Position numbers and translations under genes: made by a program. Positions 636 through 26,919 of a stretch of DNA of 32,000 nt are shown piece by piece. The stretch covers positions 90,001 through 122,000 of the forward strand of contig NZ_CP046577.1 of assembly GCF_013365435.1 (NCBI RefSeq), read 5' to 3'. Every line of letters begins with the position of its first letter. Within the stretch, counting starts at the first letter, position 1. This DNA is from Wolbachia endosymbiont of Litomosoides sigmodontis (GTDB lineage Bacteria; Pseudomonadota; Alphaproteobacteria; Rickettsiales; Anaplasmataceae). The notes below the pieces were generated by a model that worked only from the letters and a program-made list of their open reading frames with translations, had not been told where the DNA came from and did not search any database.

Positions 636-1686
636 ATACCAATAACCACTATAAAAAGAACGAATAGACAATAATGAGAAAGGAGATAGACTAAAATAAG
701 TAAAATAGCAAGGTTTAAGTAGCATTAAATCAAAATTATTGGGTAAAAAGTCGTGAAATCAATAAAAGAAATGCTAAGGAAAGTGCGGAATAACGTATAT
801 ATTGCAAAAAAAACTAAATGCTATAATTGTAGCAAAAATATGCTGTTCTTTAAGAACAGCGCTAACTGCACGGGTGAAGCCCTAAAATTTAGAAGAGAAG
901 AAAAATTATTTGCCCTCAACATTGTAGAAAAATTCTCTTGAATCAGACTTAACAAATTGAAGTATAGATACAAAGTAATCCTAATATTACCATATAAAGA
1001 AATGAAGATTAAGAATCCAGGAAAAATTTGGCTTGAATTTTAGCAAATCTCAGTGCAGCATAAAATTATATAAAAATGAGATTTTTGTGTATTGTGCTAA
1101 GACCAATTTACAATGAACAAAATAAAGGTGACAGGAAAAGTTTTAAAAAACTTAATGAAACTATTGTAAGTATCATAAACAAGAGAGTTATTCATCTTTA
1201 ATGAATCGCGGTTTGGCACACATTTGAAAGTTGATACTGGTGATTTAAAAAGAGTGTTGTACACAGGTTAAAGTAAAATGAAGTAGACAAAAATTTTTAT
1301 TTCTACAGTGCAATTAGTTCTAGAAATGAAAAGAATTTTAGGTTGTTTGCACTAAATGTCAACATTGGTTGTATAAATATGTGTTCTGAACAAATGTTGC
1401 AATAAGGACGGGAGGGACCTTTCTTGTCATGAATTTTGTTAATTAGCATAAGTCAAAGAATTTAAAGGTACCTAAAAATATCAAGGTTATATACCTACTA
1501 AAGCTTAATCCTATTGAAAGGCTTTAGTTGTATACAGAACAGAGCATTTTATATGGTAAAGTCTATAATACAATTGCTTTGCTTGAGGGTGCTTTGTACA
1601 GATTTATTACTTCCTCTTCCTTGCTCCGTAATAAAATAACTTTTGTAATGTCACTTATTTGACTTATTAACAACGAGAATTGGTAT
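636..1686 (+). mobile_element. Degenerate IS630/Tc1-mariner-family element, copy A (about full length, transposase frame destroyed)
   Basis: Termini ATACCAAT...ATTGGTAT. Collinear with copies B, C, F and G. Translated remnants include PRPIYNEQNKG, IFNESRF (first catalytic D box, D to N) and LNPIE (1505-1519). Many stops and frameshifts. Confidence 0.75.
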
Positions 1687-1693
1687 TAGGTAC

Positions 1694-1880
1694 TTTATTC
1701 ATGTAGTTAATACTGTTCTGAAATGCAATGTGTTTTTGCTGAGGCTATTATACTGTGCTTTTTTGCTATAATTACAGCATTTAGTTCTTTTTCATATATG
1801 CGTTATTTCTTATTTTCTTCAGCATTTTTTTACTGGTTACACGATTTTTTCATCCAATAATTTTGATTTTAATTTAGCAA
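1694..1880 (-). mobile_element. Inverted internal 5' fragment of the same IS family (about IS nt 78-268)
   Basis: Reverse complement aligns by eye with 3210-3400 of copy B (aaaattattggatgaaaaa ... aataacgcatat ... aaatgctgtaatt ... ctgcatgaataaa). Confidence 0.6.
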
Positions 1881-2704: not shown

Positions 2705-3132
2705 ATACCAATTATCATTGGTAATAAGTCAAGTAAGTGATATTGCAGAGTTGTTTGATTGCGAATAAGAAAGAGAGGAATCTCTTTGTACAAAGAGGAG
2801 CTCTCAAGCAAAGCAATTGTATTATAGACTTTACCATATAAAATGCTCTGTTCTGTATACAACTAAAGCCTTTTAATAGGATTGAGCTTTAGTAGGTATA
2901 TAACCTTGATATTTTTAGGTACCTTTAAATTCTTTGACTTATGCTAATTAATAAAATTCATGACAAGAAAGGTTCTTCCCATCCTTATTGCAACATTTAT
3001 TCAGAACACATATTTATACAACCAATGTTGACATTTAGTGCAAACAACCTAAAATTCTTTTCATTTCTAGAACTAACTGCACTGTAGAAATAAAAATTTT
3101 ATCTAGCTCATTTTACTTTAACCTGTGTTCTA
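2705..3132 (-). mobile_element. Inverted 3' portion (about IS nt 651-1079) of the IS family, forming the left arm of foldback composite B
   Basis: Begins with outer terminus ATACCAATTATC. The reverse complement shares runs of 76 bp and 68 bp of perfect identity with copy A (1315-1390 and 1521-1588). Ends at ...aacctgtgttcta, directly abutting the left terminus of copy B. Confidence 0.8.
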
Positions 3133-4211
3133 ATACTAATTCCTACTATACAAGTAACGGATAGACAATAACGGAAAAAATCTAGACTGAAGTAAGTAAA
3201 ATAACAAGGTTTAAATTGCGTTGGAATCAAAATTATTGGATGAAAAAGTCGTGGTAAAAGAAATGCTGAAGAAAGTGCAAAATAACGCATATGTTGCAAA
3301 AAAAACTAAATGCTGTGCTGTAATTGCAGCAAAAAGCACAGTACAGTAGCTGTAGCAAAAATATGCTGTATTTTAAGAACGGCACCAACTGCATGAATAA
3401 ATCATCTAAAATTTGGAAAAGAAGTAAAATTGTTTACTCACTTAAAGTCGTAAAAAACTAGATTGAATCAGAGTTAATTTGATAAGTTGAAGTATGGATA
3501 CAAGAAAATTCTAATATCACCATTAAAGAAATGAGAACAAGAATCTAGGAAAAATTTTGCTTGAATATCAGCAGTTTACAGTATATCGTAATATGCAAAA
3601 AATGAAGTTTTCATATATTATGCCAAGACCAATTTACAATAAACAAGATAAAGGTAAGCAGGAAAAGTTTTAAAAAAAACTTAATGAGCCTATAGGTAAG
3701 TATCTGGGAAAAGTTGCTCATCTTTGATGAATAGTGATTTACATACATTTAAAAATTGAAACAGGTGATTTGAAAAGGGCGCTAGAACACAGGTTAAAGT
3801 AAAATAGGTAAATAAAAATTTTTATCTCTACAGTATAGTCAATCTTAAAAATAGAGAAGTTTCTAGCTTGTTCATACCGAATATCAACACTGATTGTATA
3901 AATATTTGTCTTGAACAAATGTTACAATGTTAAAGGATAGGAAAAACCTTTCTTGTTATGAATTGTGTTAGTTGGCATAAGTCAAAGAATTTAAAGGTAC
4001 CTAAAAATATCAAAGTTATATACCTACTAAAGCTCAATCCTATTGAGAGCTTTGGTTGTTATAAAGCAGAGTATTTTACATAATAAAATCCATAATACAA
4101 TTGCTTTGCTTAAGAGCTCTTTAGTGCAAAGAGATTCCTCTCTTTCTTATTCCGCAATTAAATAACTCTGCAATGTCACTTATTTAACTTGTTAAGAATG
4201 AGAGTTAGTGT
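3133..4211 (+). mobile_element. Degenerate IS630/Tc1-mariner-family element, copy B (full length 1079 bp, dead)
   Basis: Left end ATACTAATTCCTACTATA, right end GAGAGTTAGTGT. Remnants: PRPIYNKQDKGKQEKF (about 3620-3670), LVMNCVSWHKSK (3952-3987, second D box with D to N) and LNPIE (4033-4047) in the same frame. Multiple stops. Confidence 0.8.
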
Positions 4212-4600
4212 TAGTAAAAGGTTATAATGCAGGGGTAATTACTCCAGGAATACATGGATCAACTTATAGTAGTAATCGAATTACTATGATTGTTGATAAT
4301 ATAGTGCTTAGTATAACGCTGAAAAAAGGTTTCCTTAATCATATTGAGGAAGTTAGTAAATATCTAAAAGAAAAACTGTTGCTTTTAATTGAAGAATTTC
4401 CGGAGATAATTTCTAAAATTCGTGGTGAGTGGGGAAGGCTTATTTACAGAAATAGAACTTTAAACTTCTTTATAATGATAAAATTATCAGCAGTCTCTTG
4501 ATCAAGGTTTAATAGCAACTGAGATTTTGAATAGTAGAGTAATAAGAATAACCCTTCACTTATTGTTGAGGATAAATATATAGGCGAGCGTGTGATATAC
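4212..4600 (+). pseudogene. argD: Class-III PLP aminotransferase (ArgD/DapC-like), C-terminal remnant
   Basis: PGIHGSTYSSNRITMIVDNIVLSI...FLNHIEEVSKYLKEKL...FPEIISKIRGEWGRLIY parallels E. coli ArgD [25 protein letters not shown]...DIRGMGLLIGAEL (from memory). After a frame change, RVIRITLHLLL parallels nvIRf.PPLii. The apparent start of listed ORF 4208-4501 lies inside the IS terminus. Confidence 0.65.
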
Positions 4601-4741
4601 TCTATAATTTATTTTTTAAGGTTAAAGTTACATTAACATTTTAAATATGTAAAACTTATCCTATAAAACTTTGAGCTTGCAAATGCTTCTTATAACATAT
4701 AAAATTAGCTCTGTTTTTCGTCTCAATAACATCATACTTTA

Positions 4742-6028
4742 ATGAATTGGTTATTGGTTTTAATATTATCAGTAATTTTTATTTTGTTAATTTTATCGTT
4801 TTTGTTTTCAGGAGCAGAAATAGGTTTAACTTCAATTAGTCGTTCTCTAGTCAATAAGCTAAAACTAGACGGCAGTAAAAGAGCCAAGATGATAGACCAC
4901 TTATTAAATAAAAAAGAATTAACAATAGGAACAATATTACTTGGAAATACAATTATTAATATTACTTGCTCCGTTTTATTTACAGCAATATTTATAAATT
5001 TCTTTGGAAATGAAAGTGTTTTTCTATCAACGATTGTAATGACGTTTTGTATCTTGCTGTTCTGTGAGGTACTACCAAAAACTTATGCTATGCAAAATCC
5101 TGAAAAATTTACGTCATTCTCTGCTTATTTTGTATTGTTTTTTGTCAATGTTTTTTCTCCATTAACGTTAAGCATTCAATTTATTGTCAATTTCATTTTA
5201 AAATTATGTGGTCTTCATAAGAATAGGGAGGCGATATCTGCAGCAGATGCAATGCGTAACATGATTGCTCTTCACCGCAGTGAAGGAACAATGTTACAGC
5301 AAGATTTAGATATGTTAAGCAGCATACTTGACTTAGCTGAAACAGAAATATCAGAAATTATGACCCATAGGAGAAACCTATTTTCTCTTGATATAGATAA
5401 GAATAAAGAAGAATTAATAAGAGAAATTTTAACTAGCAGCCACAGTAGAGTACCTTTATGGCAAAAAGAGCCAGATAACATTGTCGGAGTAGTTCACGTG
5501 AAGAATTTAATAAATGCTTTGCGTGAAAAGGATAATAAAGTAGATGAGGTTGACGTTGCTCGAGTTATGTCAAAACCTTATTTCTTGCCAGAAAGTACAC
5601 CGCTCAGTGTACAACTTCATAACTTCCGCAAAAATAGGAAACACCTTGCATTTGTTATTGATGAATATGGAGTGCTGCAGGGAATTGTAACCCTTGAAGA
5701 TATACTGGAAGAAATAGTTGGGGAAATTTCTGATGAACATGATTTAGTTACGGAGAATTTTATAAAGAAGATATCTGATAATGTATATCACATAGAAGGA
5801 AAATCTACTATTAGGGATATTAACAGACAGTTACACTGGGATCTCCCTGACGAAGAAGCTACAACTTTAGCTGGTATGATTGTAAATGAGATAGAGCGCA
5901 TTCCTGAAGAAGGTGAGGAATTTTCTATGTTTAGTTTTTACTTTAGGATTTTAAAAAAAGATAGAAATATTATTACTGTTATTGAAGTACAAGTAAAAAC
6001 TGATAGTACTGTAATAGCAATTAGTTAA
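4742..6028 (+). CDS. tlyC: Hemolysin-C / CorC-HlyC family membrane protein (DUF21 + CBS pair + CorC_HlyC)
   Basis: 428-aa ORF. N-terminal multi-TM DUF21 region, CBS region (IMTHRRNLFSLD...VPLWQKEPDNIVGVVHVKNL) and C-terminal VIDEYGVLQGIVTLEDILEEIVGEI motif. Confidence 0.85.
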   Translation: MNWLLVLILSVIFILLILSFLFSGAEIGLTSISRSLVNKLKLDGSKRAKMIDHLLNKKELTIGTILLGNTIINITCSVLFTAIFINFFGNESVFLSTIVMTFCILLFCEVLPKTYAMQNPEKFTSFSAYFVLFFVNVFSPLTLSIQFIVNFILKLCGLHKNREAISAADAMRNMIALHRSEGTMLQQDLDMLSSILDLAETEISEIMTHRRNLFSLDIDKNKEELIREILTSSHSRVPLWQKEPDNIVGVVHVKNLINALREKDNKVDEVDVARVMSKPYFLPESTPLSVQLHNFRKNRKHLAFVIDEYGVLQGIVTLEDILEEIVGEISDEHDLVTENFIKKISDNVYHIEGKSTIRDINRQLHWDLPDEEATTLAGMIVNEIERIPEEGEEFSMFSFYFRILKKDRNIITVIEVQVKTDSTVIAIS

Positions 6029-6037
6029 TTGAATTTA

Positions 6038-6295
6038 ATGGAAAATATAGTAAAAGTAACGGCTAAGGAGTTAAAGAATTATACAGAAAGAATTGAAAAA
6101 CTTGAACAAGAAAAGAAGAGTGTATACGATCTCATTTGTGATGTATATGCAAAAGCGCAGGTAGAAGTCGTAATACAAAAATGATGAAACAAATTATTAG
6201 GCTGAGAAAAATGGAAGATGATGATAGAGTATAGACAAGAGATATTGCTTAATACTTATGAACGCGCATTGGGAATGAGTTGCAAAGAAAATTAG
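6038..6295 (+). pseudogene. gapR: GapR-like DUF2312 nucleoid protein gene with two compensating single-nucleotide frameshifts
   Basis: Frame a (from ATG 6038): MENIVKVTAKELKNYTERIEKLEQEKKSVYDLICDVYAKAQ. Frame b (6160-6225): GRSRNTKMMKQIIRLRKMEDDD. Back to frame a (6227-6295): EYRQEILLNTYERALGMSCKEN-stop. The concatenation aligns without gaps to Caulobacter GapR ...[68 protein letters not shown] (from memory). Frame a itself hits TGA at 6182. Confidence 0.65.
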
Positions 6296-6859
6296 GTGAA
6301 TAACAGGATTGTGATTGGAATAAGTGGAGCATCTGGTGCTATTTATGGTGTGCATATTTTAAAGGCACTAAAAAGTGCTAATTGTGAAACACATTTAGTA
6401 ATAAGCCGTGCTGGAAGAATAACTATATCTCATGAAGTTACAGAAAGACTTGAAGATATTATATCACTTGCAGATTTTTATTATTGTGAAGAAAGAATAG
6501 GAGAAAAAATAGCGAGTGGCTCATTTAAAACTTTAGGTATGGTTGTTGCTCCATGTTCTATGAAAACAATGTCTGAAATTGCATCAGGTGTTACTTCCAA
6601 TCTGTTAACAAGAGCTGCAGATGTAACACTAAAAGAAAGAAGAAAATTAGTTCTTATAGTGCGAGAATCACCACTACACCTTGGTCATTTACAGAATATG
6701 CTGAAATTAACAGAGATGGGGGCAATAATTGCTCCGCCAATGCCTGCTTTCTATACCAAGCCAAAATCGTTAGAGGATATTGTAAGTCACTCTATTGGCA
6801 AAGTGTTGAGTTTATTTAATATCAAATTACCTGACTTCAAAGAATGGCAAGGAGTATAG
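6296..6859 (+). CDS. ubiX: Flavin prenyltransferase UbiX
   Basis: 187-aa ORF with GTG start. IVIGISGASGAIYG nucleotide-binding N-terminus, VVAPCSMKT and PPMPAFY motifs typical of UbiX/Pad1. Confidence 0.9.
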   Translation: MNNRIVIGISGASGAIYGVHILKALKSANCETHLVISRAGRITISHEVTERLEDIISLADFYYCEERIGEKIASGSFKTLGMVVAPCSMKTMSEIASGVTSNLLTRAADVTLKERRKLVLIVRESPLHLGHLQNMLKLTEMGAIIAPPMPAFYTKPKSLEDIVSHSIGKVLSLFNIKLPDFKEWQGV

Positions 6860-6862
6860 CAA

Positions 6863-7786
6863 GTGACAATTATCATCGATGGTAAAAAAATAGCTGATGG
6901 CCTGTGTGAGGAATTATCACAAAAAATCTCTATTTTAAGAAGAAAGCACAACATTTTTCCTTGCCTTAAAGTAATTCTTGTAAACAAGAATCCAGCAAGT
7001 CAGATTTATGTTCGTAATAAACAAAAAAAAGCAGAATCAATAGGCATAAATTCTGAAACTATTGTTTTACCTGATAACATTTCGGAAAATAAATTAATTG
7101 AAAAAATTAATGAATTAAATGATGATCCATCTGTAAATGGCACTTTAGTACAGCTACCTTTACCAAGTCACATTAGGGCAGGAAAAGTAATTAACACAGT
7201 GAATGTTGAAAAAGACGTAGATGGCTTTCATGATGAAAATGTTGGTAGATTAGTTAAAGGTGAAAGAAATTGTCTTGTACCTTGCACTCCTAAGGGAGTT
7301 TTGCATTTAATTAAGTTGGTTGAAACTGATCTTTCAGGTAAAAATGCAGTGGTGATTGGTAGGTCAAACATTGTGGGTAAGCCAATGCTTTACCTATTGT
7401 TGCAAGAAAACTGTACTGTTACTATTTTGCACTCGCAAAGTAAAAATTTAGCTGAATATTGCTCTAAAGCAGATGTAGTAGTTGCAGCAGTTGGAAAGCC
7501 AAATTTTGTCCAAGAAAGCTGGATAAAGGAAGGAGCAATAGTGATTGACGTTGGCATAAATAGTGTAAATATGAAGGGACGGACAAAACTTATAGGTGAT
7601 GTTAACTTTGATAGAGTAAAAGAAAAAGCCAAAGCTATTACGCCAGTACCAGGGGGCGTTGGCCCGATGACCATTGCATTCTTGATGATAAATACTGTTA
7701 TTGCTACTTGCTTGCAGAAGAAAGTTGAAATTTCTGATTTTATGAGCTTAATACCAGTTTCTACTGTACAAGGAACGAATAGGTAA
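6863..7786 (+). CDS. folD: Bifunctional methylenetetrahydrofolate dehydrogenase/cyclohydrolase FolD (last 11 codons supplied by an IS terminus)
   Basis: 307-aa ORF with GTG start. Motifs: [52 protein letters not shown]. Nucleotides 7751-7786 are the IS left-end sequence. Confidence 0.9.
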
Positions 7787-7813
7787 TAATGAAAAAGAAG
7801 CCATGCTAAAGTA
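7751..7813 (+). mobile_element. 63-bp left-terminal fragment of the IS family, overlapping the folD 3' end
   Basis: ataccagtttctactgtacaaggaacgaataggtaataatgaaaaagaagccatgctaaagtaa matches the first ~63 nt of copies E and G. Confidence 0.65.
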
Positions 7814-8113
7814 ATGCTAATTCTCATTGTTAATGAGTTGAATAAATAACATTACAGAGTTGTTTAATTGCAGAGTGAGAAAGAGAGGTAATAAATTTGT
7901 ACAGACCACTCTCAAGCAAAGTGATTTTATTATAGACTTTATTACGCAAAATGTTCTATTCTATATAGAACTAAAATTTCCCAATAGGAATTAAGCTTGG
8001 TGAGTATTGTAGTAGATGTATAACTCGATATTTTAAAGTAATTCTAAAATTTTTAACTTATATTAATTAATATAATTCATGGCAAGAAAGGCTTCTTGTA
8101 TTCTTATATTATT
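7814..8113 (-). mobile_element. Inverted 3' portion (about IS nt 793-1079), left arm of foldback composite C
   Basis: Starts with outer terminus tgctaattctcattgttaatgag. The reverse complement is collinear with 8890-9186. Confidence 0.7.
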
Positions 8114-9186
8114 TCCAATATGCAAGAAACGGATAGGTAACAATAAAAAAGAAAACTTACTGAAGTAAGTAAAATAGTGAAGTTGAAATGGTATTGAAAT
8201 CAAAATTTTTGAATGAAAAAGCCGTGGAATCAGCAAAAGAAATGGTGAAGAAAGTGCGAAATAACGCATGTGTTGCAAAAAAACTAAATGCTGTAATTGT
8301 AACGAAAAGCATAGTATAACAGCAGTAGCAAAAACATGTTTCATTTTAGAAACAGCATTAACTGCGTGGATAAAGCATCTAAAATTTGGGAGAAAAGAAA
8401 GATTGTTTACTCTTCCTCAATGTCGTAGAAAGGCTAGATTGAATCAGAGTTAATTTGAATAAGTTGAAGTATGGATACAGAAAATTCTAATATTACTATT
8501 AAAGATAAGGATTTAGAAAAATTTGTCTTGAATATCAGCAAGTCTACAGCACACTGTAATATGCAAGAATGGAATTTTCATATATTACGCAGAATTAATT
8601 CATAATGAACAAAATAAAGGTAGTAGAAAGAATTTGAAAAAACTTAATGAGGCTATTGGTAAGTGTCTTGAACAAGAGTTATTTATCTTTGATAAGCGAA
8701 GTTTACCACGCATTCAAAAGTTGGTACAGGTGATTTAAAAAGGATGTTAGAACGCAGGTTAAAGTAAAATTAGGTAGGTAAAACTTTTATCTCTACAGGA
8801 GCTAATTCTAAAAATAGAGAGAGTTCTGGCTTATTTATACCGAATGCAAACACTGATTGTATAAATATATTTCTTGAACAAATGTTGCAATATTTAAAAA
8901 TATGAGAAGCATTTTTTGTCATGGATTATGCTAGTTGATACAAATTAAAAATTTTAGAAACACCTGACAGTATTGAGTTATATATCTACCATCATATTCA
9001 CCAGGCCTTAATCCCTATTGAGAGACTTTAGTTGTATATGAAATAGAACATTTTGCGTAATAAGATCTATAATAAAATTACTTTGCTTGAGAGTGTCTGT
9101 GCAAATTTATTACTTCTCTTTCTCACTCTGCAATTAAACAACTCTGTTGTGTCATTTATTTGACTCACTAACAAGAGAGTTGGTAT
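8114..9186 (+). mobile_element. Degenerate IS630/Tc1-mariner-family element, copy C (dead; left terminus slightly deleted)
   Basis: VMDYAS (8918-8935) and LIPIE (9008-9022) lie in the same frame, with D and E 32 codons apart. Right terminus gagagttggtat ends at 9186. Many stops. Confidence 0.8.
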
Positions 9187-9402
9187 AAGATCTATAATTG
9201 TGCAGTAATATAATTGGGCAAGATGAAAGATATTGAAATAGTAGGGCTAAAAGTATGATTAATAATAACTTTTTTTTTGCTGTATCTGAGCACAACTTTC
9301 TTCGATGATTGTAATTTTAATTTACTATACTGTGGACTCAGTTGCAATTTAGATCTATCATATAAAAATTTTAGGTAACATAAAAGAATTTGTTAAATAG
9401 CA

Positions 9403-18928: not shown

Positions 18929-19816
18929 GTGTCTGTTTTAGTAAGTAAAGATACAAGATTAATATGTCAGGGTTTTACTGGTGCACAAGGTACATTTCAT
19001 TCAGAGCAAGCTATCAGCTATGGAACAAAGGTGGTTGGTGGTGTAACTCCAGGGAAAGGTGGAAGTTCTCACCTTAATTTGCCGGTCTTTGATACTGTAG
19101 CAGAAGCTAAAGAGAAAACTGATGCAAATGCTACGGTCATATATGTACCTGCTAAATTTGCTGCTGCTGCAATATTTGAAGCAATAGATGCAGAGATAGG
19201 GTTGATAGTTTGTATTACAGAGGGCATTCCTATACTTGACATGGTAAAGGTTAAGCATGCACTTGTTAATTCAAAGAGTCAATTGATTGGTCCTAACTGT
19301 CCTGGAATTATTACACCTGAAGAATGCAAAATAGGAATCATGCCAGGACATATTCACAAGCGTGGGCATATAGGAATTATGTCTCGTTCTGGAACTTTAA
19401 CTTATGAAGCAGTTGCACAAACAACCGCTGTTAACCTTGGCCAGTCAACATGCATTGGAATTGGAGGAGATCCTGTTCATGGTATGACATTCGTTGACTG
19501 CATGGAACTATTTTTAAAAGATGAAGATACTCATGGTATTGTAGTTATTGGTGAGATTGGTGGAAATGAAGAAGAAGATGTATCATATTTTGTGAAGACA
19601 GAAAAAATTAAAAAGCCAATTGTTGCATTTATAGCTGGTCAAACAGCACCTCCAGGAAGACGCATGGGGCATGCTGGAGCGATTATTTCTTCTAGCGGAG
19701 GAAGTGCTGGTGCAAAGCTAGAAGTTATGAGCAGTGCTGGTATTGCAATTGCGGAAACTCCTGCAGTGATTGGCAAAAAGGTTTTAGAAGTAATGCATAA
19801 GGCTTATATTGCCTAA
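18929..19816 (+). CDS. sucD: Succinyl-CoA synthetase alpha subunit
   Basis: 295-aa ORF with GTG start, 3 nt after suc[20 protein letters not shown] and phosphohistidine loop GHAGAII. Confidence 0.95.
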
Positions 19817-19823
19817 ACTGAAA

Positions 19824-20600
19824 CTATAGAAATCCTATATCGCCAGTCATAAATATGTTGTCTAACCATTCGATTAGTAATTTCCCTCCTGGAAAATTCA
19901 CTGAGGTCTGTCGAGTAATCGAGTATCCACGTAGCACGGATGCAACGAATACTGCACAGGCTCCACTACCACATGAGGCAGTTATACCTGTGCCTCGCTC
20001 CCAAACTCTTAAAGCTATTTCTCCAGATTTTTCAACTTGCGCAATGTTGACATTTACTTTCTTGGGAAAGAATATATGATTTTCTAATTTTGGTCCCAAG
20101 CTTTGCAACGGTATTTCGCTTATGTTATCAACAAAAAAAACTATGTGAGGATTACCAATATTTACTGCAACTGGATCTTTTAACATGTGAAGCTTTATGG
20201 GTAAATGAAGTGGATCACACTTAGCAGAAAGAGGAATTTTATACCACTCAAACAGTGGTTTGCCCATGTTGACCTTGATAGATTTGACGCCAACTTTAAA
20301 GCACTCTAAAATGCGCTCGTTTATTAACTCAATAGTAGCATACTTAGTACTTTTTTCTGACATTATTAAATATCCAACGCAACGTGCTGCGTTCCCGCAC
20401 ATTTCAACTTTGCTACCATCAGCATTATAAATGTGCATAAAACAATCAGCTGCACTGGAGTTGGTTATTACTATAACTTGATCACAGCCATTTTGATTGG
20501 CAATTTTTCTATAATTCCAGTTTAAATTATTTGTTAAACGTGAGTCTATGATAACAAGGTTGTTACCAGTGCCATGCATTCTTTCTAGGACTTTGGCCAT
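19824..20600 (-). CDS. dapF: Diaminopimelate epimerase
   Basis: 258-aa ORF. MHGTGNNLVIID start and both catalytic Cys contexts (EMCGNAARC and SCGSGACA). Confidence 0.9.
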   Translation of the reverse strand: MAKVLERMHGTGNNLVIIDSRLTNNLNWNYRKIANQNGCDQVIVITNSSAADCFMHIYNADGSKVEMCGNAARCVGYLIMSEKSTKYATIELINERILECFKVGVKSIKVNMGKPLFEWYKIPLSAKCDPLHLPIKLHMLKDPVAVNIGNPHIVFFVDNISEIPLQSLGPKLENHIFFPKKVNVNIAQVEKSGEIALRVWERGTGITASCGSGACAVFVASVLRGYSITRQTSVNFPGGKLLIEWLDNIFMTGDIGFL

Positions 20601-21151
20601 TCATTATAAAAAAATATTTCCTCTATTGGCTTTCTTGTCTTTTCTTTGACTTCAGCCCCTTTTTTTTCGTAACCAATTGCTATCACTGACATTACGTTAA
20701 AATCATCGGGTATATTGAACTTTTTCACTATTTTATCTCTATCAAATCCACCCATTTGATGAGCCATTAAGTTCATAGATGTAGCCTGTAACATAAGTGC
20801 ATAATTTGCTGCACCAGTGTCATGGCTACCCCAAAAATTTGCTCCTTTTGTGTGATCACGGAAATTTTTAGCGCTCAATGATATGATTAATATTTGTGTA
20901 TCTTTTGTCCACTTTTGATTATATTCAGTAAGGCAACTCAGTAATTTTTTCCATGCATTTTGATTACTTTGTCTGTTACATATCACATATCTCCATGGCT
21001 CATCACCATAACATGAAGGAGATAGTCTTGTAGCTTCTATTAGCATATTTATTTCTTTCTGATGTACTAATTTACTTTGGTCATATGAACGTCCGCTATG
21101 CCTTATTTTTATCAATTCTAATAGATCTTCTTTACTTATCATTTTTAACAC
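20585..21151 (-). CDS. Nitroreductase-family protein
   Basis: 188-aa ORF. IRHSGRSY...LIEATRLSPSCYGDEPWRY is a typical nitroreductase-fold N-terminus. Overlaps the dapF start by 16 nt. Confidence 0.75.
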   Translation of the reverse strand: MLKMISKEDLLELIKIRHSGRSYDQSKLVHQKEINMLIEATRLSPSCYGDEPWRYVICNRQSNQNAWKKLLSCLTEYNQKWTKDTQILIISLSAKNFRDHTKGANFWGSHDTGAANYALMLQATSMNLMAHQMGGFDRDKIVKKFNIPDDFNVMSVIAIGYEKKGAEVKEKTRKPIEEIFFYNEWPKS

Positions 21152-21304
21152 TCAATAAAAAACTAGCTCTACATGGTAGAGTATTGAAAGAAGTTTAACC
21201 TTTTTATTTCACACAAGGAACATAATTATGAGCAACAAAAGCAAAATTTAAATTGCAAGATTCCTAAATGTAATTAGCTTTAATATATTTTGACTTAGGG
21301 GAAT

Positions 21305-21845
21305 ATGTTTACAACGCAATCTACCAGTAAATCGGTGTTAATTGAAGTCTTTTTTTGTGTTTTATTCCTATTTCTAATGGCTCAAATAAGCATGCCGTTA
21401 CAGGCTGTGCTATATTATATACACTACAAAGTTTAGGAGTAATGCTTGTTGGACTTGAATTTAATCACAGGACAGCATTATATTCTGTATTTACGTATTT
21501 ATCACTTGGTTCAGCAAGATTACCTGTTTTTGCAGATTTTCTTGGTGGCTATTACACTTTCCTTAAGCCAGCAAGTGGATATTTAATTGGATTTTTAGCA
21601 GCTGTTATAGTTATGGGCAAAGTAAACCAAACCAATTGCTAAAAACTCTAAATGTAAATCACTTATACGCGATTCTTGAACTGTCTAGCTGGTACAGCCA
21701 CAAATCTTTGCTTGTGGTATTAATTTGGCTTGCTATTCACGTGAGTTTAAAACAAGTAGTAATGGTTGGCGTGCTACCGTTTATTCTTTCTGGTTTGGTA
21801 AAGATTTTCCTACTTATAGTAGCTTTACAATATTTAAGAAAATGA
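21305..21845 (+). pseudogene. bioY: Biotin transporter BioY gene disrupted by at least two frameshifts
   Basis: Three frames are needed: MFTTQ...LFLMAQISMPLQAV (21305-21430, stops), then LYTLQSLGVMLVGLEF...LPVFADFLGG...LKPASGYLIGFLAAVIVMG (ORF 21355-21642), then IWLAIHVSLKQVVMVGVLPFILSGLVKIFLLIVA (ORF 21636-21845). Together these match the BioY pattern AQIsiPl..vPiTLQtLgVlLaG...lPvFaG...G.l.GPtgGYLiGF...GvlPFlpGDllK. Confidence 0.7.
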
Positions 21846-22582
21846 TAAGGTTTCGTCTTCACCATTTCATGTGCGCTCTTGCGTTTTAAGGATATAGTAT
21901 TCTCTAAATTTTGCAAAAAATGATATAGAAAGGTGGCAAATAAGGTAATCGCTGACCCCAATCCTCAAGTCGAAATAATCGGTAATCTTGATAGTATTTA
22001 TAGTACTTGTTCAAACCAGACTCAGTAAGGTAAATGCACTATACAAGCTAAAGTTTTAGAGCAGCTGGACAGGAGGTATATGGAGATTTTAAGAATAAAA
22101 ATTGGAGAGATTTTTACCTGGAGTGAAGTAGTGAAAAGAATCATGGAGAAAATGTCTTTAGAAAAATTTGACTACACATGTGAGTGGTATAACTGAAAGT
22201 CATATAAAAAATATGCAAAGGAGCTCTTTTGCCTTCTATATAATGCGTTGATAAAAATGTATAGAAAAATAATCAGGAAAAAGGTGCTTTACCTAAATTA
22301 GCTAGAAATGGCGTTTTTCAGTCCCTCCTTCTCCTATTATATCAACATCGTCTTCTCGTCATTCTAATGCTTTCTTTTCTTGTCTATTCTAGTGCCTTAA
22401 CACTAAGATCCAGTCTTTTGTAATCATTGAAAACGTTATATTTTGTCACAAAACAGCTGCTTTCATAAGACTACATATAAAATAACCAAGAAGCATCACA
22501 TGCTAAACTAAAAGGGAGAAAAGGATCATTTATCCTTTATTAGAATAATTCACTCTCTTCCTCGGTAAAATATGGGTAATTG

Positions 22583-23352
22583 ATACCAATTTCTACTATA
22601 TAGGGAATGGATAGATGAAAAGAAGCCATACTGAAGCAAGTAAAGTAATGAGGTTTTAATGGCATTGAAATCAAAATTATTGAATGAAAAAGTCATGGAA
22701 CCAACAAAATAAATGTTGAAGGAAGTGCAAAATAACGTGCATTTTACAAAAAAACTAAATGTTGTAATTGCAGCAAAAAAGCACAGTATAGTAGCCGTAG
22801 CAAAAATAGTTTTATTTTAAGAACGGCATTGGCTATATAGATAAAGTATCTAAACTTTGGAAGAGAAACTATTTGCTCTTTTTTTATGTTATAGAAGAAC
22901 TAAGTTTGAATTGTAGTCAATTTAAGAATAAGAACCTGGAAAAATTTATCTTGGATGTCAGCAAGACTACAGTACTGTAATATGTAAAAAATAAAGTTTT
23001 TGTATATTATACCGGGACCAATTTACAATGAACAAGATAAAAGTGGATAGGAAGAGTTTAAAAAAACTTAATGAGGTTGTTGGTAAATATCCTAAGTAAG
23101 AATTATCCATCTTTGATGGATCGCAGTTTAGCGTACATTCAAAGGTTGGATACGGGTAGTTTAGAAAGAGTGTTAAAACACAGGTTAGAGTAAAATTTGG
23201 CAGACAAAGTTTTTATCTTTATAGGCAGTTAATTCTCGAAGTGGAGGGAATTTTAGCTTATTTGCACCGAGAATATATACATTGATTGTATGAATATATT
23301 TCTTGAATAAATGTCGCTCTATTTAAGAATGTGAGAAGCCTTTGCTCTTTAG
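22583..23352 (+). mobile_element. Degenerate IS630/Tc1-mariner-family element, copy E (3' truncated near the xth stop)
   Basis: Left end ataccaatttctactatatagg. Collinear with other copies through ...aagaatgtgagaagcctttgct. Right boundary is good to about +/-10 bp. Confidence 0.75.
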
Positions 23353-23361
23353 GAGAAAGTA

Positions 23362-24147
23362 TCATCCTATAACGCACACAACAGGTGTATGATCGGATGG
23401 ATTTTTTAACTTGCGTAGTCTGTCGACTATATAGCATATTTCCAACCTATCTGCTGCTTGTGGTGATAACAGCATATGATCTATTCTCATTCCTTGATTA
23501 TTTCTTGATGAATTGCCTTGATAGTGCCACCAGCTAAACTGTTGTAAATTTGGATGGCATATTCTAAATGCATCTTTAAATCCAAGATTCAAGATTGCTC
23601 TTAATTTCTCACGTTCTCTTATATGAAAACACACTTGATCAGTCAATAAAGTTGGATCAAAGACGTCAATTTCATCTGGTGCAACATTATAATCGCCGGC
23701 TATAACAGTTAGTTCCTCATTCTTTAGCAAATTGTCCATTCTTTCATATAGTTTATCAAAAAACTTGAGTTTATATTCAAATACATGAGAGTCTGGGCTT
23801 TGACCATTTGGAACGTATACGCTACCTACTCTTATCTTTTGATTATTGTGTTTTATTAAGCACTCTATATAACGAGCTTCTTGATGACCTTCTACAATGT
23901 CAATTTTAAATTTCTCTAGTATTGAATGCTTGGATAAAACACAAACGCCATTTCTTGCGGCCTGCCCGTAGACAATACATTCATATCCCAGCTTTTCTAT
24001 TTCTATGTAAGGAAATTGTTTTTCTGTGCATTTTATCTCTTGCAGTAAAATTATATCTATTTGATCATCGACTATAAAATTACAGAGCTGATTAACCCTC
24101 TTGCGTATAGAGTTTACATTCCAAGTTGCAATTTTTAGCATCAGCAA
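23362..24147 (-). CDS. xth: Exodeoxyribonuclease III
   Basis: 261-aa ORF. KIATWNVNSIR start, LQEIK, and C-terminal SDHTPV, typical of the ExoIII/APE family. Confidence 0.9.
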   Translation of the reverse strand: MLMLKIATWNVNSIRKRVNQLCNFIVDDQIDIILLQEIKCTEKQFPYIEIEKLGYECIVYGQAARNGVCVLSKHSILEKFKIDIVEGHQEARYIECLIKHNNQKIRVGSVYVPNGQSPDSHVFEYKLKFFDKLYERMDNLLKNEELTVIAGDYNVAPDEIDVFDPTLLTDQVCFHIREREKLRAILNLGFKDAFRICHPNLQQFSWWHYQGNSSRNNQGMRIDHMLLSPQAADRLEICYIVDRLRKLKNPSDHTPVVCVIG

Positions 24148-24848
24148 TCCTTATTAATTAGGTCAATTAAACTTTCTTGAGTAGGTAGTCTTGCTGTTAT
24201 AATTTTTTTCCATTTGATTGGCTTCAAGCTGTCAACAATATTCTTGCTCATAGCACATGCAGTTACATTGTCCATTGCGTTAGATAAACCACTCTTTAGA
24301 ACTAGAGAACAGAATATTCTTGCTGTCTGTGAAGAGAAAAAAGCAACACTATTAATTTTACCACCTAATAATAAATTTTTACACCTATTAGTGAGGCCCC
24401 TTTTAATAAGGGTCTTATAAAATATAACTTCTCTTACGTTAAAACCTTCTTCGGATAATCTCTTTTTTAAGTCGCATGATACTTCTTGCCCTCTTATATA
24501 CAAGAACTTTACTGCTCTTGAGTAGTAATTTTTTATGAATGATATCAGCCCTTCAACATTGCTGTCTGCTGATATAATATCAGAAAACCCTGAATCCTTT
24601 GCAGTTTGCATAGTCGAATTACCAACTGTAATGATTGGAAGATCACCTACTCTGCATATTTGGCTAAATGCTTTCACGCTGTTCTTGCTTGTGGATATTA
24701 CCACATCAAATTCATATGCAGATATGTCAGGCTGCAAATGCTTTATTGTAAATACTGGTTCTATATATACTTTATACCCATATTTCTTTAGTGTACTTCT
24801 TGTATTTAGTGAATCTGATAAAGGCCTTGTTAATAAGATAGACTTCAT
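24141..24848 (-). CDS. hemD: Uroporphyrinogen-III synthase (HemD family)
   Basis: 235-aa ORF. ILLTRP...L...G...EP, FDVVISTSKNSV and SVAFFSSQTA follow the two-lobed HemD pattern. 7-nt overlap with xth. Confidence 0.7.
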   Translation of the reverse strand: MKSILLTRPLSDSLNTRSTLKKYGYKVYIEPVFTIKHLQPDISAYEFDVVISTSKNSVKAFSQICRVGDLPIITVGNSTMQTAKDSGFSDIISADSNVEGLISFIKNYYSRAVKFLYIRGQEVSCDLKKRLSEEGFNVREVIFYKTLIKRGLTNRCKNLLLGGKINSVAFFSSQTARIFCSLVLKSGLSNAMDNVTACAMSKNIVDSLKPIKWKKIITARLPTQESLIDLINKDC

Positions 24849-25304
24849 TCTAATCTACTTTACTATAGGTAAAAATAATACCTTTGATGGATAAATTACT
24901 GAATAAAAATTTTTAAATAGATTATATTTTCTGTTACTAATACTTAATTTCATTAAAATTTTGTAATTGACTCTTACAGAAATTTTGTTAGAAGATAAAT
25001 GTTCATTTTTCTTTATGAAAATTTAAAGTAAGCTAGACTTTATCAATTGCTACTCTAGATGTGTCACTGCTACTCATTGTTTTTATTTCTTCACTTTTAT
25101 TTGTGAATTTAATTCTTGTTAGTGTAAAGATTTTTTTTATGCTAGATGAGCTTAGATATTAAAGAAATTTTAGGCTTTACGGCACCTTTCATTATCTTTT
25201 TTTAATACTCAATGGTATGAATAACCTAAAAATGCAGCTAATTAAGCTCGTTATATTACCATTGATGATAATTCTCTTGTTAAACTTGTTTATCAAACCT
25301 TATT

Positions 25305-26386
25305 ATACTAATTTTTATTGCTAATGAATCAAATAAGTGAGATTGCAGAATTGTTTAATTGCGAAATGGGAAAAGAGAGGCAATAAATTTGCACGAAGCA
25401 CTCTCGAGCAAAGCAATTGTATTATAGGTTTTATTATGCAAAATATTCTGTTTTATATATAACTAAAGTCTCTTAATAGGATTGACTCAGGTGAGTATAG
25501 TGTTAAATACATAATCTCGATGTTTTTATATACCTTTAAATTTTTTTAACTTATTTCAACTCTTATTTATCTATGATAAAAAGGCTTCTTGTGTTCTAAA
25601 ATATTAGAACCTTTATTCAAGGAATATATTCATATAATTATTGTTGACATTTTAGTGCAAATAAGCTAAAATTCCTTCCGTTTTTATGATTAATTACACT
25701 GTAGAGATAAAAAATTTTGTCTACTAATTTTACTTTAACCTATGTTCTAACGTTATTTTTAAATAGCTACACCCAACTTTTGAATATGTACCAAACTGTG
25801 ATTTATCAAAGATGAATAATTCTTGTTCAGGATACTTATAATGGTTTCATTAAGTTTTTTTTAACTCTTTCTGCTTACCTTTATCTTACTCATTGTGAAT
25901 TGATTTTGGTATAATGTGCGAAAACTTTATTTTTTGCATATTACTATAAACTTGTTACATTCAAGCCAAATTTTTCCTGAGTTCTTATTCTCATTTCTTT
26001 AATGTAATATTAGAGTTTTTATATCAGTACTTCAATTTGTCAAATTGATTCTGATTCAATCTAGTTTTTTTTACGAAGTTGAGGGAGTAAACAATTTTTC
26101 TTCTCTTCCAAATTTTAGGTGATTGCAGTTAATGCTGTTCTTGAAATGCAGCATATTTTTGCTATGGCTGTTATACTGTGTTTTTTGCTGCAGTTACAGC
26201 ATCTAGTTTTTTTGCAACATATACATTATTTTGCGTTTCCTTCAGCATTTCTTTTGCTGATTCCACGACTTTTTTTATCCAATGATCTTGATTTTAACGT
26301 TATTTAAGCCTCGTTATTTTATCTACTTCAGTAAAGCTTCCTTTCTATTATTGTCTATCTGTTTCTTGTACAGGGGTAATTGGTAT
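25305..26386 (-). mobile_element. Degenerate IS630/Tc1-mariner-family element, copy F (full length 1082 bp, the only long copy on the minus strand)
   Basis: On the plus strand it runs from RC right end atactaatttttattgctaatgaatc to RC left end ...tacaggggtaattggtat (26386). Collinear in reverse complement with copies A-C. Confidence 0.8.
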
Positions 26387-26919
26387 AAGTATCCTGGACA
26401 AGAATTATTCATCTTTGATGAATCGTGGTTTGATACATATTCAAAAGTTAGGTACGGATGTTTAAAAATGGCGTTAGAACATAGGCTAAAGTAAAATTAG
26501 TAGACAAAATTTTTTATCTCTACAGCGTAATTAATCATAAAAATGGAAGGAATTTTAGCTTATTTGCACTAAAATGTTAACAATAATTGTATGAATATAT
26601 TCCTTGAATAAAGGTTACAATATTTAAGAACACAAGAAGCCTTCTTATCATAGATTATAAGAATTGAAATAAGTTGAAAATTTGAAGGTATCTAAAAATA
26701 TCGAGATTATGTACTTAACGCTATACTCACCTGAGTCAACCCTATTATAGAGACTTTGGTTGTATATAAAATAGAATATTTTGCATAATAAAATCTATAA
26801 TACAATTGCTTTGCTTGAGAGTACTTCATGCAAATTTATTGCCTCTCTCTTTCCCATTTCACAATTAAACAACTCTGCAATCTCACTTATTTGATTCACT
26901 AGCAATGAAAATTAGTATA
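26387..26919 (+). mobile_element. 3' portion (about IS nt 566-1079) in plus orientation, forming the second arm of foldback composite F
   Basis: Begins aagtatcctggacaagaattattc. Includes IFDESWF (26411-26431). Ends ...gcaatgaaaattagtata. About 90% identical by eye to the reverse complement of 25305-25840. Confidence 0.8.

Follow-up and report, generated by a model that had tools for sequence, protein, structure and literature searches.

How does a dead insertion sequence (IS) come to carry, at one locus after another, an inverted copy of its own 3′ part fused to its left terminus? This question is raised by a 32,000-nt stretch of the genome of the Wolbachia endosymbiont of Litomosoides sigmodontis (wLsig; NCBI RefSeq assembly GCF_013365435.1, contig NZ_CP046577.1, positions 90,001 to 122,000 of the forward strand), referred to here as the window. 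One decayed element of the IS630 family, all of its pieces summed, occupies 27% of the window. An earlier note, made from the letters of the window, described four such foldback composites (here termed B, C, D and F), and mapping with a consensus and a hidden Markov model (HMM) finds all four essentially where that note had placed them. It is very probable, judging from the sequences compared below, that the composites arose when copies of the element inserted into oppositely oriented copies of itself, that they are older than the split between wLsig and its sister genome wLbra (Wolbachia of Litomosoides brasiliensis), and that their arms and partners have evolved in concert since. wLbra shares ~90% average nucleotide identity with supergroup D genomes including wLsig (PMC8116671).

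The four composites are units of 1.4–1.6 kb with inverted arms of 290–530 bp, and each arm is a plain copy of the 3′ part of the IS. Self-comparison of the window gives seven copies of a ~1.09-kb repeat and five fragments, namely the four inverted arms and an inverted 5′ piece beside copy A. A 63-bp left-end fragment, Z, is absent from the self-comparison list and was detected by consensus and HMM mapping. The nhmmer E-values of the arms range from 2e-66 to 2e-131, so the arms are not chance matches. The parts, with positions in the IS consensus given as "IS", are as follows.

637..1686, + strand: copy A, full-length and decayed (nhmmer model 2-1092, E=1e-252), with a solo left end and a right end fused to an inverted 5′ piece.
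1687..1873, - strand: inverted 5′ fragment beside A, IS 277 to 89, abutting the right end of A at a TTA site; a mirror-image right junction, orthologous to wLbra locus L023.
2705..3132, - strand: B arm, inverted 3′ part, IS 1092 to 652.
3133..4211, + strand: B core, full-length and decayed; junction GTGTTC-TAA-TACTAATT; outer flanks of the composite TTA and TTA.
7752..7814, + strand: Z left-end fragment, IS 2-64, outside the C arm; also present in wLbra (L054, 10890-10952).
7815..8104, - strand: C arm, inverted 3′ part, IS 1092 to ~802, ~290 bp; at its right terminus it meets Z, on a TAA site.
8105..9186, + strand: C core, full-length and decayed, with a degenerate left end; junction TTC-TTA-TATTATTTCC.
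16046..16480, - strand: D arm, inverted 3′ part; inner end at site 652, as in B; outer terminus degenerate.
16481..17175, + strand: D core, with an internal deletion (IS ~363-469) and truncated at ~817; full length in wLbra.
22583..23347, + strand: copy E, solo, truncated at ~824; the wLbra ortholog is full length, with 86% identity and TGA/TGA flanks.
25305..26386, - strand: F core, full-length and decayed.
26387..26918, + strand: F arm, inverted 3′ part from IS site 564; junction on the core strand GGATAC-TTA-TACCAAT.
29137..30107, + strand: copy G, solo, truncated at ~990; left end orthologous in wLbra (L052).

Two details of the earlier description change with this mapping. The junction of C, a real composite, lies at 8105/8106 rather than 8113/8114, with an arm of ~290 bp (7815–8104). 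In addition, the right-type termini that had been assigned to both outer ends of every composite are found on both sides of B and F, while C is bounded by a left end (contributed by Z) and a right end, and the outer terminus of the D arm is degenerate.

The element itself is readily placed. Its majority consensus of ~1090 bp contains stops and frameshifts throughout, as does every copy in the window, and when stitched across frames it matches PF13358 DDE_3 (E=6.2e-25). The closest intact proteins are IS630-family transposases of insect Wolbachia (P0001–P0004, 52–63% identity), which carry HTH_32/HTH_33 and DDE_3 domains. Three intact relatives (L002, L020 and L029) are 1088–1103 bp long with terminal repeats of 13/14 bp (TACCAATTC.CATT), and none of them contains a long internal inverted repeat; the element proper spans TACCAAT...ATTGGTA, with T-N-A on both sides. 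A DDE_3 transposase with an N-terminal helix-turn-helix, a length of ~1.1 kb, a single gene and short terminal repeats are all as in the IS630 family, but the insertion into and duplication of TA that are characteristic of the family are not seen, the flanks fitting a 3-bp T-N-A instead. Judged by its predicted protein, on which the membership rests, the element is a dead IS630-family IS, as the earlier note had proposed, and we take T-N-A as a variant target within that family.

The target was derived from aligned termini of copies in wLsig, wLbra and insect Wolbachia, with a target matrix built solely from the 59 termini that do not adjoin IS sequence. At both ends, these non-nested termini have T at position -2 in 53/59 and C at position -3 in 30/59, which gives a target of roughly CTNAG. 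Matching T-N-A flanks are found in ~10/18 solo copies in wLsig and wLbra (the other ~8/18 are mismatched) and in 6/8 copies in insect Wolbachia. Among the matching flanks are TGA/TGA (L030, the ortholog of E) and TCA/TCA (the intact L002), which are therefore not products of TA duplication. Terminus positions that display T-N-A within the window include 2703–2705, 4211–4213 and 26386–26388. Thus, the element appears to target T-N-A in a CTNAG-like context and to duplicate the 3-bp T-N-A, as opposed to the canonical TA of IS630/Tc1/mariner elements. A literature search for a T-N-A target in IS630 gave nothing specific.

It is the same target that marks the foldbacks. Each arm/core junction in the window keeps a complete terminus and sits exactly on a T-N-A site: B and D share the junction ..GTGTTC-TAA-TAC.. 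at site 652, the identity between the two having been recognized earlier, while C has ..TTC-TTA-TAT.. and F has ..GGATAC-TTA-TACCAAT. The IS consensus holds 119 T-N-A sites, and those used include the sites ranked 2 (564), 3 (652), 5 (63), 20 (802), 22 (276) and 23 (67) by target score; at least three of the eight used sites are among the top five of the 119 (P=0.002). Intact termini and T-N-A junctions together indicate insertions made by transposase into an oppositely oriented copy, and all junction types, in both genomes, lie on T-N-A sites of the IS consensus, as nested insertion would have it.

The earlier note had considered that the adjacency of arm and IS might be confined to these loci, but the junctions recur in wLbra. 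One scan of species-representative genomes gave 49 loci, mostly from wLbra. The 652 junction is present there with identical sequence at L005, L007, L010, L011, L016, L018, L037 and L039 and at a second site in L054, and L014 is probably another example whose sequence is cut off. The 802 junction is found in L021 and L035. Right junctions, in which the right end of a core meets an inverted 5′ piece, occur at sites 63–71, 276, 381–402, 564 and 653. The right junction of L024 at site 653, ATTAGTA-TAA-CGCCC, complements the 652 left junction exactly, and the right junctions of L007 and L027 use site 564, as the left junction of F does. Identical junctions in the independent wLbra assembly and in Logan contigs rule out an assembly artefact.

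In addition to these terminus-anchored junctions, one internal-to-internal junction is present in wLbra, where IS 232 is joined to an inverted 965 (L018, 5143–5694, and L044, 2356–2881), and it breaks the terminus-anchored rule. Several wLbra and Logan contigs end inside the IS, two of them (L023 and L054) at IS position 468 and others at termini, as also seen in L052 and L055. These repeats therefore break up the draft assembly, whose counts of IS copies and foldbacks are underestimates.

The junctions share three further features. First, the orientation is inverted in all ~26 junctions (10 types). The sole sign of a direct event comes from L011 (WQMO01000018), where 18 bp of the right terminus are repeated in direct orientation just outside the core; this is consistent with a direct self-insertion at site 1075 whose product recombination later collapsed. 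Second, both halves of the target at one site are found at no locus, including B, C, D, F and all wLbra loci, although in three compounds the two ends lie at differing sites of one target (L021 at 68/802, L010 at 383/652 and L007 at 564/652). Third, the half that is retained is the shorter one, with left junctions at 564–1029 and right junctions at 63–653 (Mann-Whitney p=0.027).

The composites can be dated relative to the separation of the two genomes. L054, a contig of 20 kb of wLbra around folD, contains the Z fragment, the C arm and the C core at the orthologous site and in the same state as in wLsig, and it has 652-type composites at both ends of a block that matches window positions 4212–16045, so that B, C and D all occupy orthologous sites in it. 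The outer right ends of F are both orthologous in wLbra as well (L030 and L052). Together, these sites indicate that the composites are older than the wLsig/wLbra split. The only undisturbed orthologous pair, E and L030, is 86% identical compared with 76–81% for background paralogs, which suggests a burst of transposition not much older than the split. Copy A and its counterpart in L023, as well as the B arm and L023, are 78% identical, like random paralogs, and these low values are read as conversion noise. An empty-site check with an outgroup (L053, TldD locus, 84% identical) found no synteny left of the F composite.

Gene conversion is apparent in several of the pairs. The B arm is 91% identical to the neighboring copy A, and 97% over 298 nt, compared with ~83% to its own core. 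Along its length, the identity to A is 92–100% over IS 655–975 and 67–78% beyond, and the outer ~100 nt of the arm resemble the B core. The 298-nt tract flanks the glutaredoxin gene grxD (2084–2404, between copy A and composite B) as an inverted pair, at 1290–1587 and 2803–3100, with 97% identity against a background of 76% and 80% for the wLbra counterparts. The tract is a recent product of gene conversion, and recombination across it could invert grxD.

In C, D and F, the arm had been thought to resemble its own partner more than other copies. This is clear in F, where arm and partner are 89–93% identical, and weak in C (83%, others at most 81%) and D (85% over 149 nt). The identity in F falls in two blocks of 94–98% with about 70% between them, and in the terminal 70 nt the arm and core of wLsig share at least seven states where the arm and core of wLbra share the alternatives. 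Likewise, the arm-core identities of C within each genome (83.0% and 89.8%) exceed those between orthologous arms (78.3%) and orthologous cores (81.8%). In wLbra, arms of the 652 type show no greater similarity to their own cores. Such patchy and species-specific identity points to gene conversion after the wLsig/wLbra split; arm and partner do evolve in concert, as had been suggested, but the resemblance reflects later conversion rather than an origin of the arm from its partner.

Recombination between the repeats has also rearranged the genomes. In B and D, each of the four adjacencies between a right end and its flank is kept between wLsig and wLbra, yet they are connected differently, which implies at least one large inversion (roughly 13 kb) and one flip of the central 1–652 segment. 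The block at 4212–16045, which runs from an aminotransferase fragment and a CNNM gene to smpB, keeps its orientation relative to L054, while its neighbors, the grxD side and the sucCD side, are exchanged and inverted, with breakpoints inside the B and D composites. L054 and L023, which both end at IS position 468, fit together. A like-type flip, relative to the Z fragment, distinguishes C from L021/L035.

The remaining question is how an insertion that should leave two halves of its target came to leave one. We favor, with moderate confidence, an account in which each foldback is half of an IS-in-IS insertion and the composites were then moved via two like ends. During an old burst of this IS630 element in supergroup D Wolbachia, copies would have landed in other copies, the IS sequence itself holding several good sites (63–67, 276, 564, 652 and 802). 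Homologous recombination probably reduces nested insertions in direct orientation to a single copy while inverted events survive, so only inverted junctions would be expected to persist. A nested inverted pair would have four ends, which could validly be paired in four ways: right with right, which takes the arm and the core; left with left, which takes the core and the inverted 5′ piece; the ends of the inner copy; and the ends of the whole pair. Transposase may pair two like ends and move the composite as a unit, and right-right and left-left mobilization would yield exactly both of the classes observed. The remnant at a locus would be a full core, one terminus of which adjoins the target copy's shorter half. 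Complete pairs may be erased in two steps, a flip that creates direct repeats and a deletion between these that leaves a single copy, and this resolution would explain why none is seen.

The step in which units move through like ends, which the earlier note had also envisaged via two right ends, comes close to an even chance of being correct but falls slightly below it. Several observations support it. L021 and L035 have core-core identity of 91–94% and arm-arm identity of 90%, against a background of 81%, and unrelated flanks; they are copies of one compound and the sole direct case of unit movement. A compound of Z (64–68) and the 802 junction is found at three loci. Site 652 accounts for 11/26 junctions where the target model expects 10% (P=2e-5), an excess that falls to P=0.14 if the target score underestimates the site threefold. 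In the sample, left and right junctions stand at 10:1 at site 652 and 3:0 at site 802, and junctions at 63–71, 276 and 381–402 are right only. The outer flanks match for B (TTA/TTA) and C (TAA/TAA). In addition, mariner pseudo-elements with two preferred ends (Mos1 RR and Mboumar-9 LL) transpose better than the natural form, by 26-fold for Mos1 RR (PMC4505599); these belong to the same Tc1/mariner/IS630 superfamily, but they were engineered and assayed in vitro. As in composite transposons, two ends in inverted orientation lie at the outer boundaries of B, C and F, which would be predicted to make them competent for such movement.

Other observations weigh against this account. No complete same-site nested pair is present in the ~250 kb sampled, so the precursor is one that we infer, and the census, which takes in ~40 kb of wLsig and ~210 kb of wLbra, includes wLbra loci picked around IS copies. 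The outer T-N-A flanks mismatch for F, L011 and L035 and overall match no better than the ~33% expected by chance; the comparison for L005 is confounded by inversion. Seven wLbra 652-type composites with both parts form no clade and have no arm-core co-genealogy (Mantel r=-0.38, p=0.85), so relatedness of the kind seen between L021 and L035 is not apparent among them, though power is low: a neighbor-joining tree of 5′ regions is star-like, and even the two halves of the same cores lack a significant correlation. The two-site compounds L021, L010 and L007 need extra steps. Finally, site 652 scores high, so independent hits could explain part of its recurrence.

Those independent hits, extended to all loci, are the alternative that survives best, as an unlikely but serious one. 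Separate insertions at 652, 802 or 564 would have struck each locus, with the other half lost later and no movement of units. Such a history accords with the high target scores of the used sites within the IS (ranks 2, 3 and 5), with the lack of any subfamily signal among 652-type cores or arms, and with outer flank duplications that are mostly mismatched. However, it needs ~10 independent events at one of 119 sites, the coincidence that the target model rates at the P value given above, and the 5′ half must vanish exactly to the core terminus at no fewer than eight loci. It also leaves L021/L035 and the three-locus compound of Z and the 802 junction without explanation.

It is improbable that complete inverted nested pairs were instead split into halves by homologous recombination with distant solo copies, through inversions or translocations. 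IS-mediated rearrangement is certainly active, as the inversion and the flip between wLsig and wLbra attest; both half types exist for sites 564 and 652; and flanks are scrambled even in solo copies, of which ~8/18 are mismatched. Splitting by recombination predicts equal halves per site, though, and what the sample holds is the 10:1 and 3:0 ratios and the right-only sites described above, nor does it predict that the shorter half is retained.

The two origins proposed in the earlier note, along with variants of them, fare much worse. A transposase-free foldback, produced by template switching or by priming from a hairpin as a gap was repaired or the DNA replicated, would account for the closeness of arm and partner that is seen in F and, weakly, in C and D, and is nevertheless hardly credible: the termini are complete and the junctions lie exactly on T-N-A targets, like ordinary insertions, rather than on microhomologies; an identical junction recurs at 10 loci; the composites are older than the split, with patchy, species-specific arm-partner identity that denotes conversion; and wLbra arms are not closer to their own cores. 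A head-to-head dimer trimmed by one-ended nested deletions, or an element with naturally long terminal inverted repeats, would fit the intact terminus that anchors the junctions but can be given almost no weight, because the inner ends are discrete, shared, high-scoring target sites rather than scattered deletion end-points, complementary right-junction products exist in wLbra (sites 653 and 564), and the intact L002, L020 and L029 have ends of 13/14 bp, not the ~400 bp that natural repeats would need, with no internal inverted repeat.

Three other routes were considered and rejected. Autointegration of a single copy would not duplicate the 3′ part, and both insertion of a hybrid end pair from sister copies and Campbell integration of an inversion circle predict an extra partial copy, of which none is seen.

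Within the favored account of self-insertion followed by movement via like ends, a stronger version is possible but doubtful, in which the 652-type right-right composite would be a distinct non-autonomous foldback derivative, born by self-insertion and preferentially mobilized to at least 10 loci. If so, right-right ends, or ends assembled by the arms, may outperform the natural left-right pair, and the shorter-half rule would reflect which composite moves.

Several known systems resemble parts of this architecture. In maize double Ds and half double Ds elements (Ac/Ds, hAT), an inverted copy lies inside an identical copy, and derivatives keep one full copy and a half. These are eukaryotic elements with an 8-bp duplication, known from a few active loci and associated with chromosome breakage. 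As in the Wolbachia composites, several like and unlike ends are present in double Ds, and alternative pairings among them drive rearrangements; the Wolbachia composites differ in being dead bacterial copies at 10 or more loci, known here from sequence alone. A literature search on double Ds gave nothing specific. Tn10- and Tn5-type composite transposons have inverted IS copies that bracket a mobile segment, and their inverted arms recombine. The foldbacks differ from them in that there is no cargo, one arm is a fragment of 290–530 bp that runs directly into the other copy's terminus, and the outer ends are like (right) ends. FB and Galileo elements of Drosophila have long hairpin-forming inverted repeats made of tandem subrepeats, which are the normal structure of the family and are associated with inversions. 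Here, the arms are a by-product of self-insertion, and the intact element has 14-bp repeats, so the composites are not of the FB kind. A MITE (miniature inverted-repeat transposable element) is a non-coding deletion derivative, under ~600 bp long, with the terminal repeats of its parent at both ends, and the composites, at 1.4–1.6 kb and including a full-length decayed copy, are not of that kind, as the earlier note had stated.

Within Wolbachia, 18 cases of IS copies split by other IS copies have been reported in genomes rich in dead IS (Cerveau et al. 2011, PMC3205602). Those were counted as ordinary two-sided interruptions, not as one-sided self-insertions at recurrent sites or a repeated composite architecture. 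In wBm, itself of supergroup D, gene conversion keeps dead IS copies similar, according to Cordaux 2009 as it is cited in PMC3205602, much like the A/B-arm, F and C pairs here; in the present case, unlike wBm as described in that citation, the partners are arms of one composite or near neighbors, and crossovers (the flip and the inversion) are documented too. The paper on the wLsig and wLbra genomes states only "more ISs" (PMC8116671), and the literature search found no prior description of a recurrent one-sided self-insertion architecture.

The neighboring genes of the window are housekeeping genes, namely folD, mrdA, proS, sucCD, tldD and xth, and one of them has been altered by the IS. The Z fragment supplies the 3′ end of folD (6863–7786), namely its final 12 codons and stop (7752–7786), and FolD has 307/308 amino acids (aa) in wLsig/wLbra compared with 295–298 aa in most other Wolbachia, which indicates that an old IS insertion remodeled the C-terminus of an essential enzyme. 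Directly 3′ of the B core is an open reading frame (ORF) of 97 aa (4208–4501) whose sole match is Aminotran_3 and which resembles a pseudogene or a piece of a gene; the wLbra version has 77 aa. Another ORF (11697–12902, 401 aa) contains two tandem 132-bp units at 12200–12463 with 92% identity; it has no NCBIfam match and a faint WH2 match as its only Pfam match, and it is kept at 400 aa in wLbra.

The architecture is best regarded as genome archaeology, of interest for the evolution of transposons and endosymbiont genomes, and not as a new class of mechanism or a new kind of element; nothing suggests a cellular function of the composites. It illustrates that, in an endosymbiont genome that is small and dense in genes, an IS without target immunity survives preferentially where it has landed in its own copies and thereby leaves a family of long inverted repeats. 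These repeats are one reason why synteny is poor in supergroup D Wolbachia, as the flip and the ~13-kb inversion exemplify, and they break short-read assemblies, with wLbra contigs ending inside them. The composites also display the concerted evolution of dead DNA and are useful to recognize in annotation and assembly. If the composites were indeed mobilized as units, they would be a natural example of end preference shaping which derivatives of a transposon spread, and if right-right composites were preferentially amplified, they would be a natural bacterial counterpart of Mos1 RR and the maize half double Ds.

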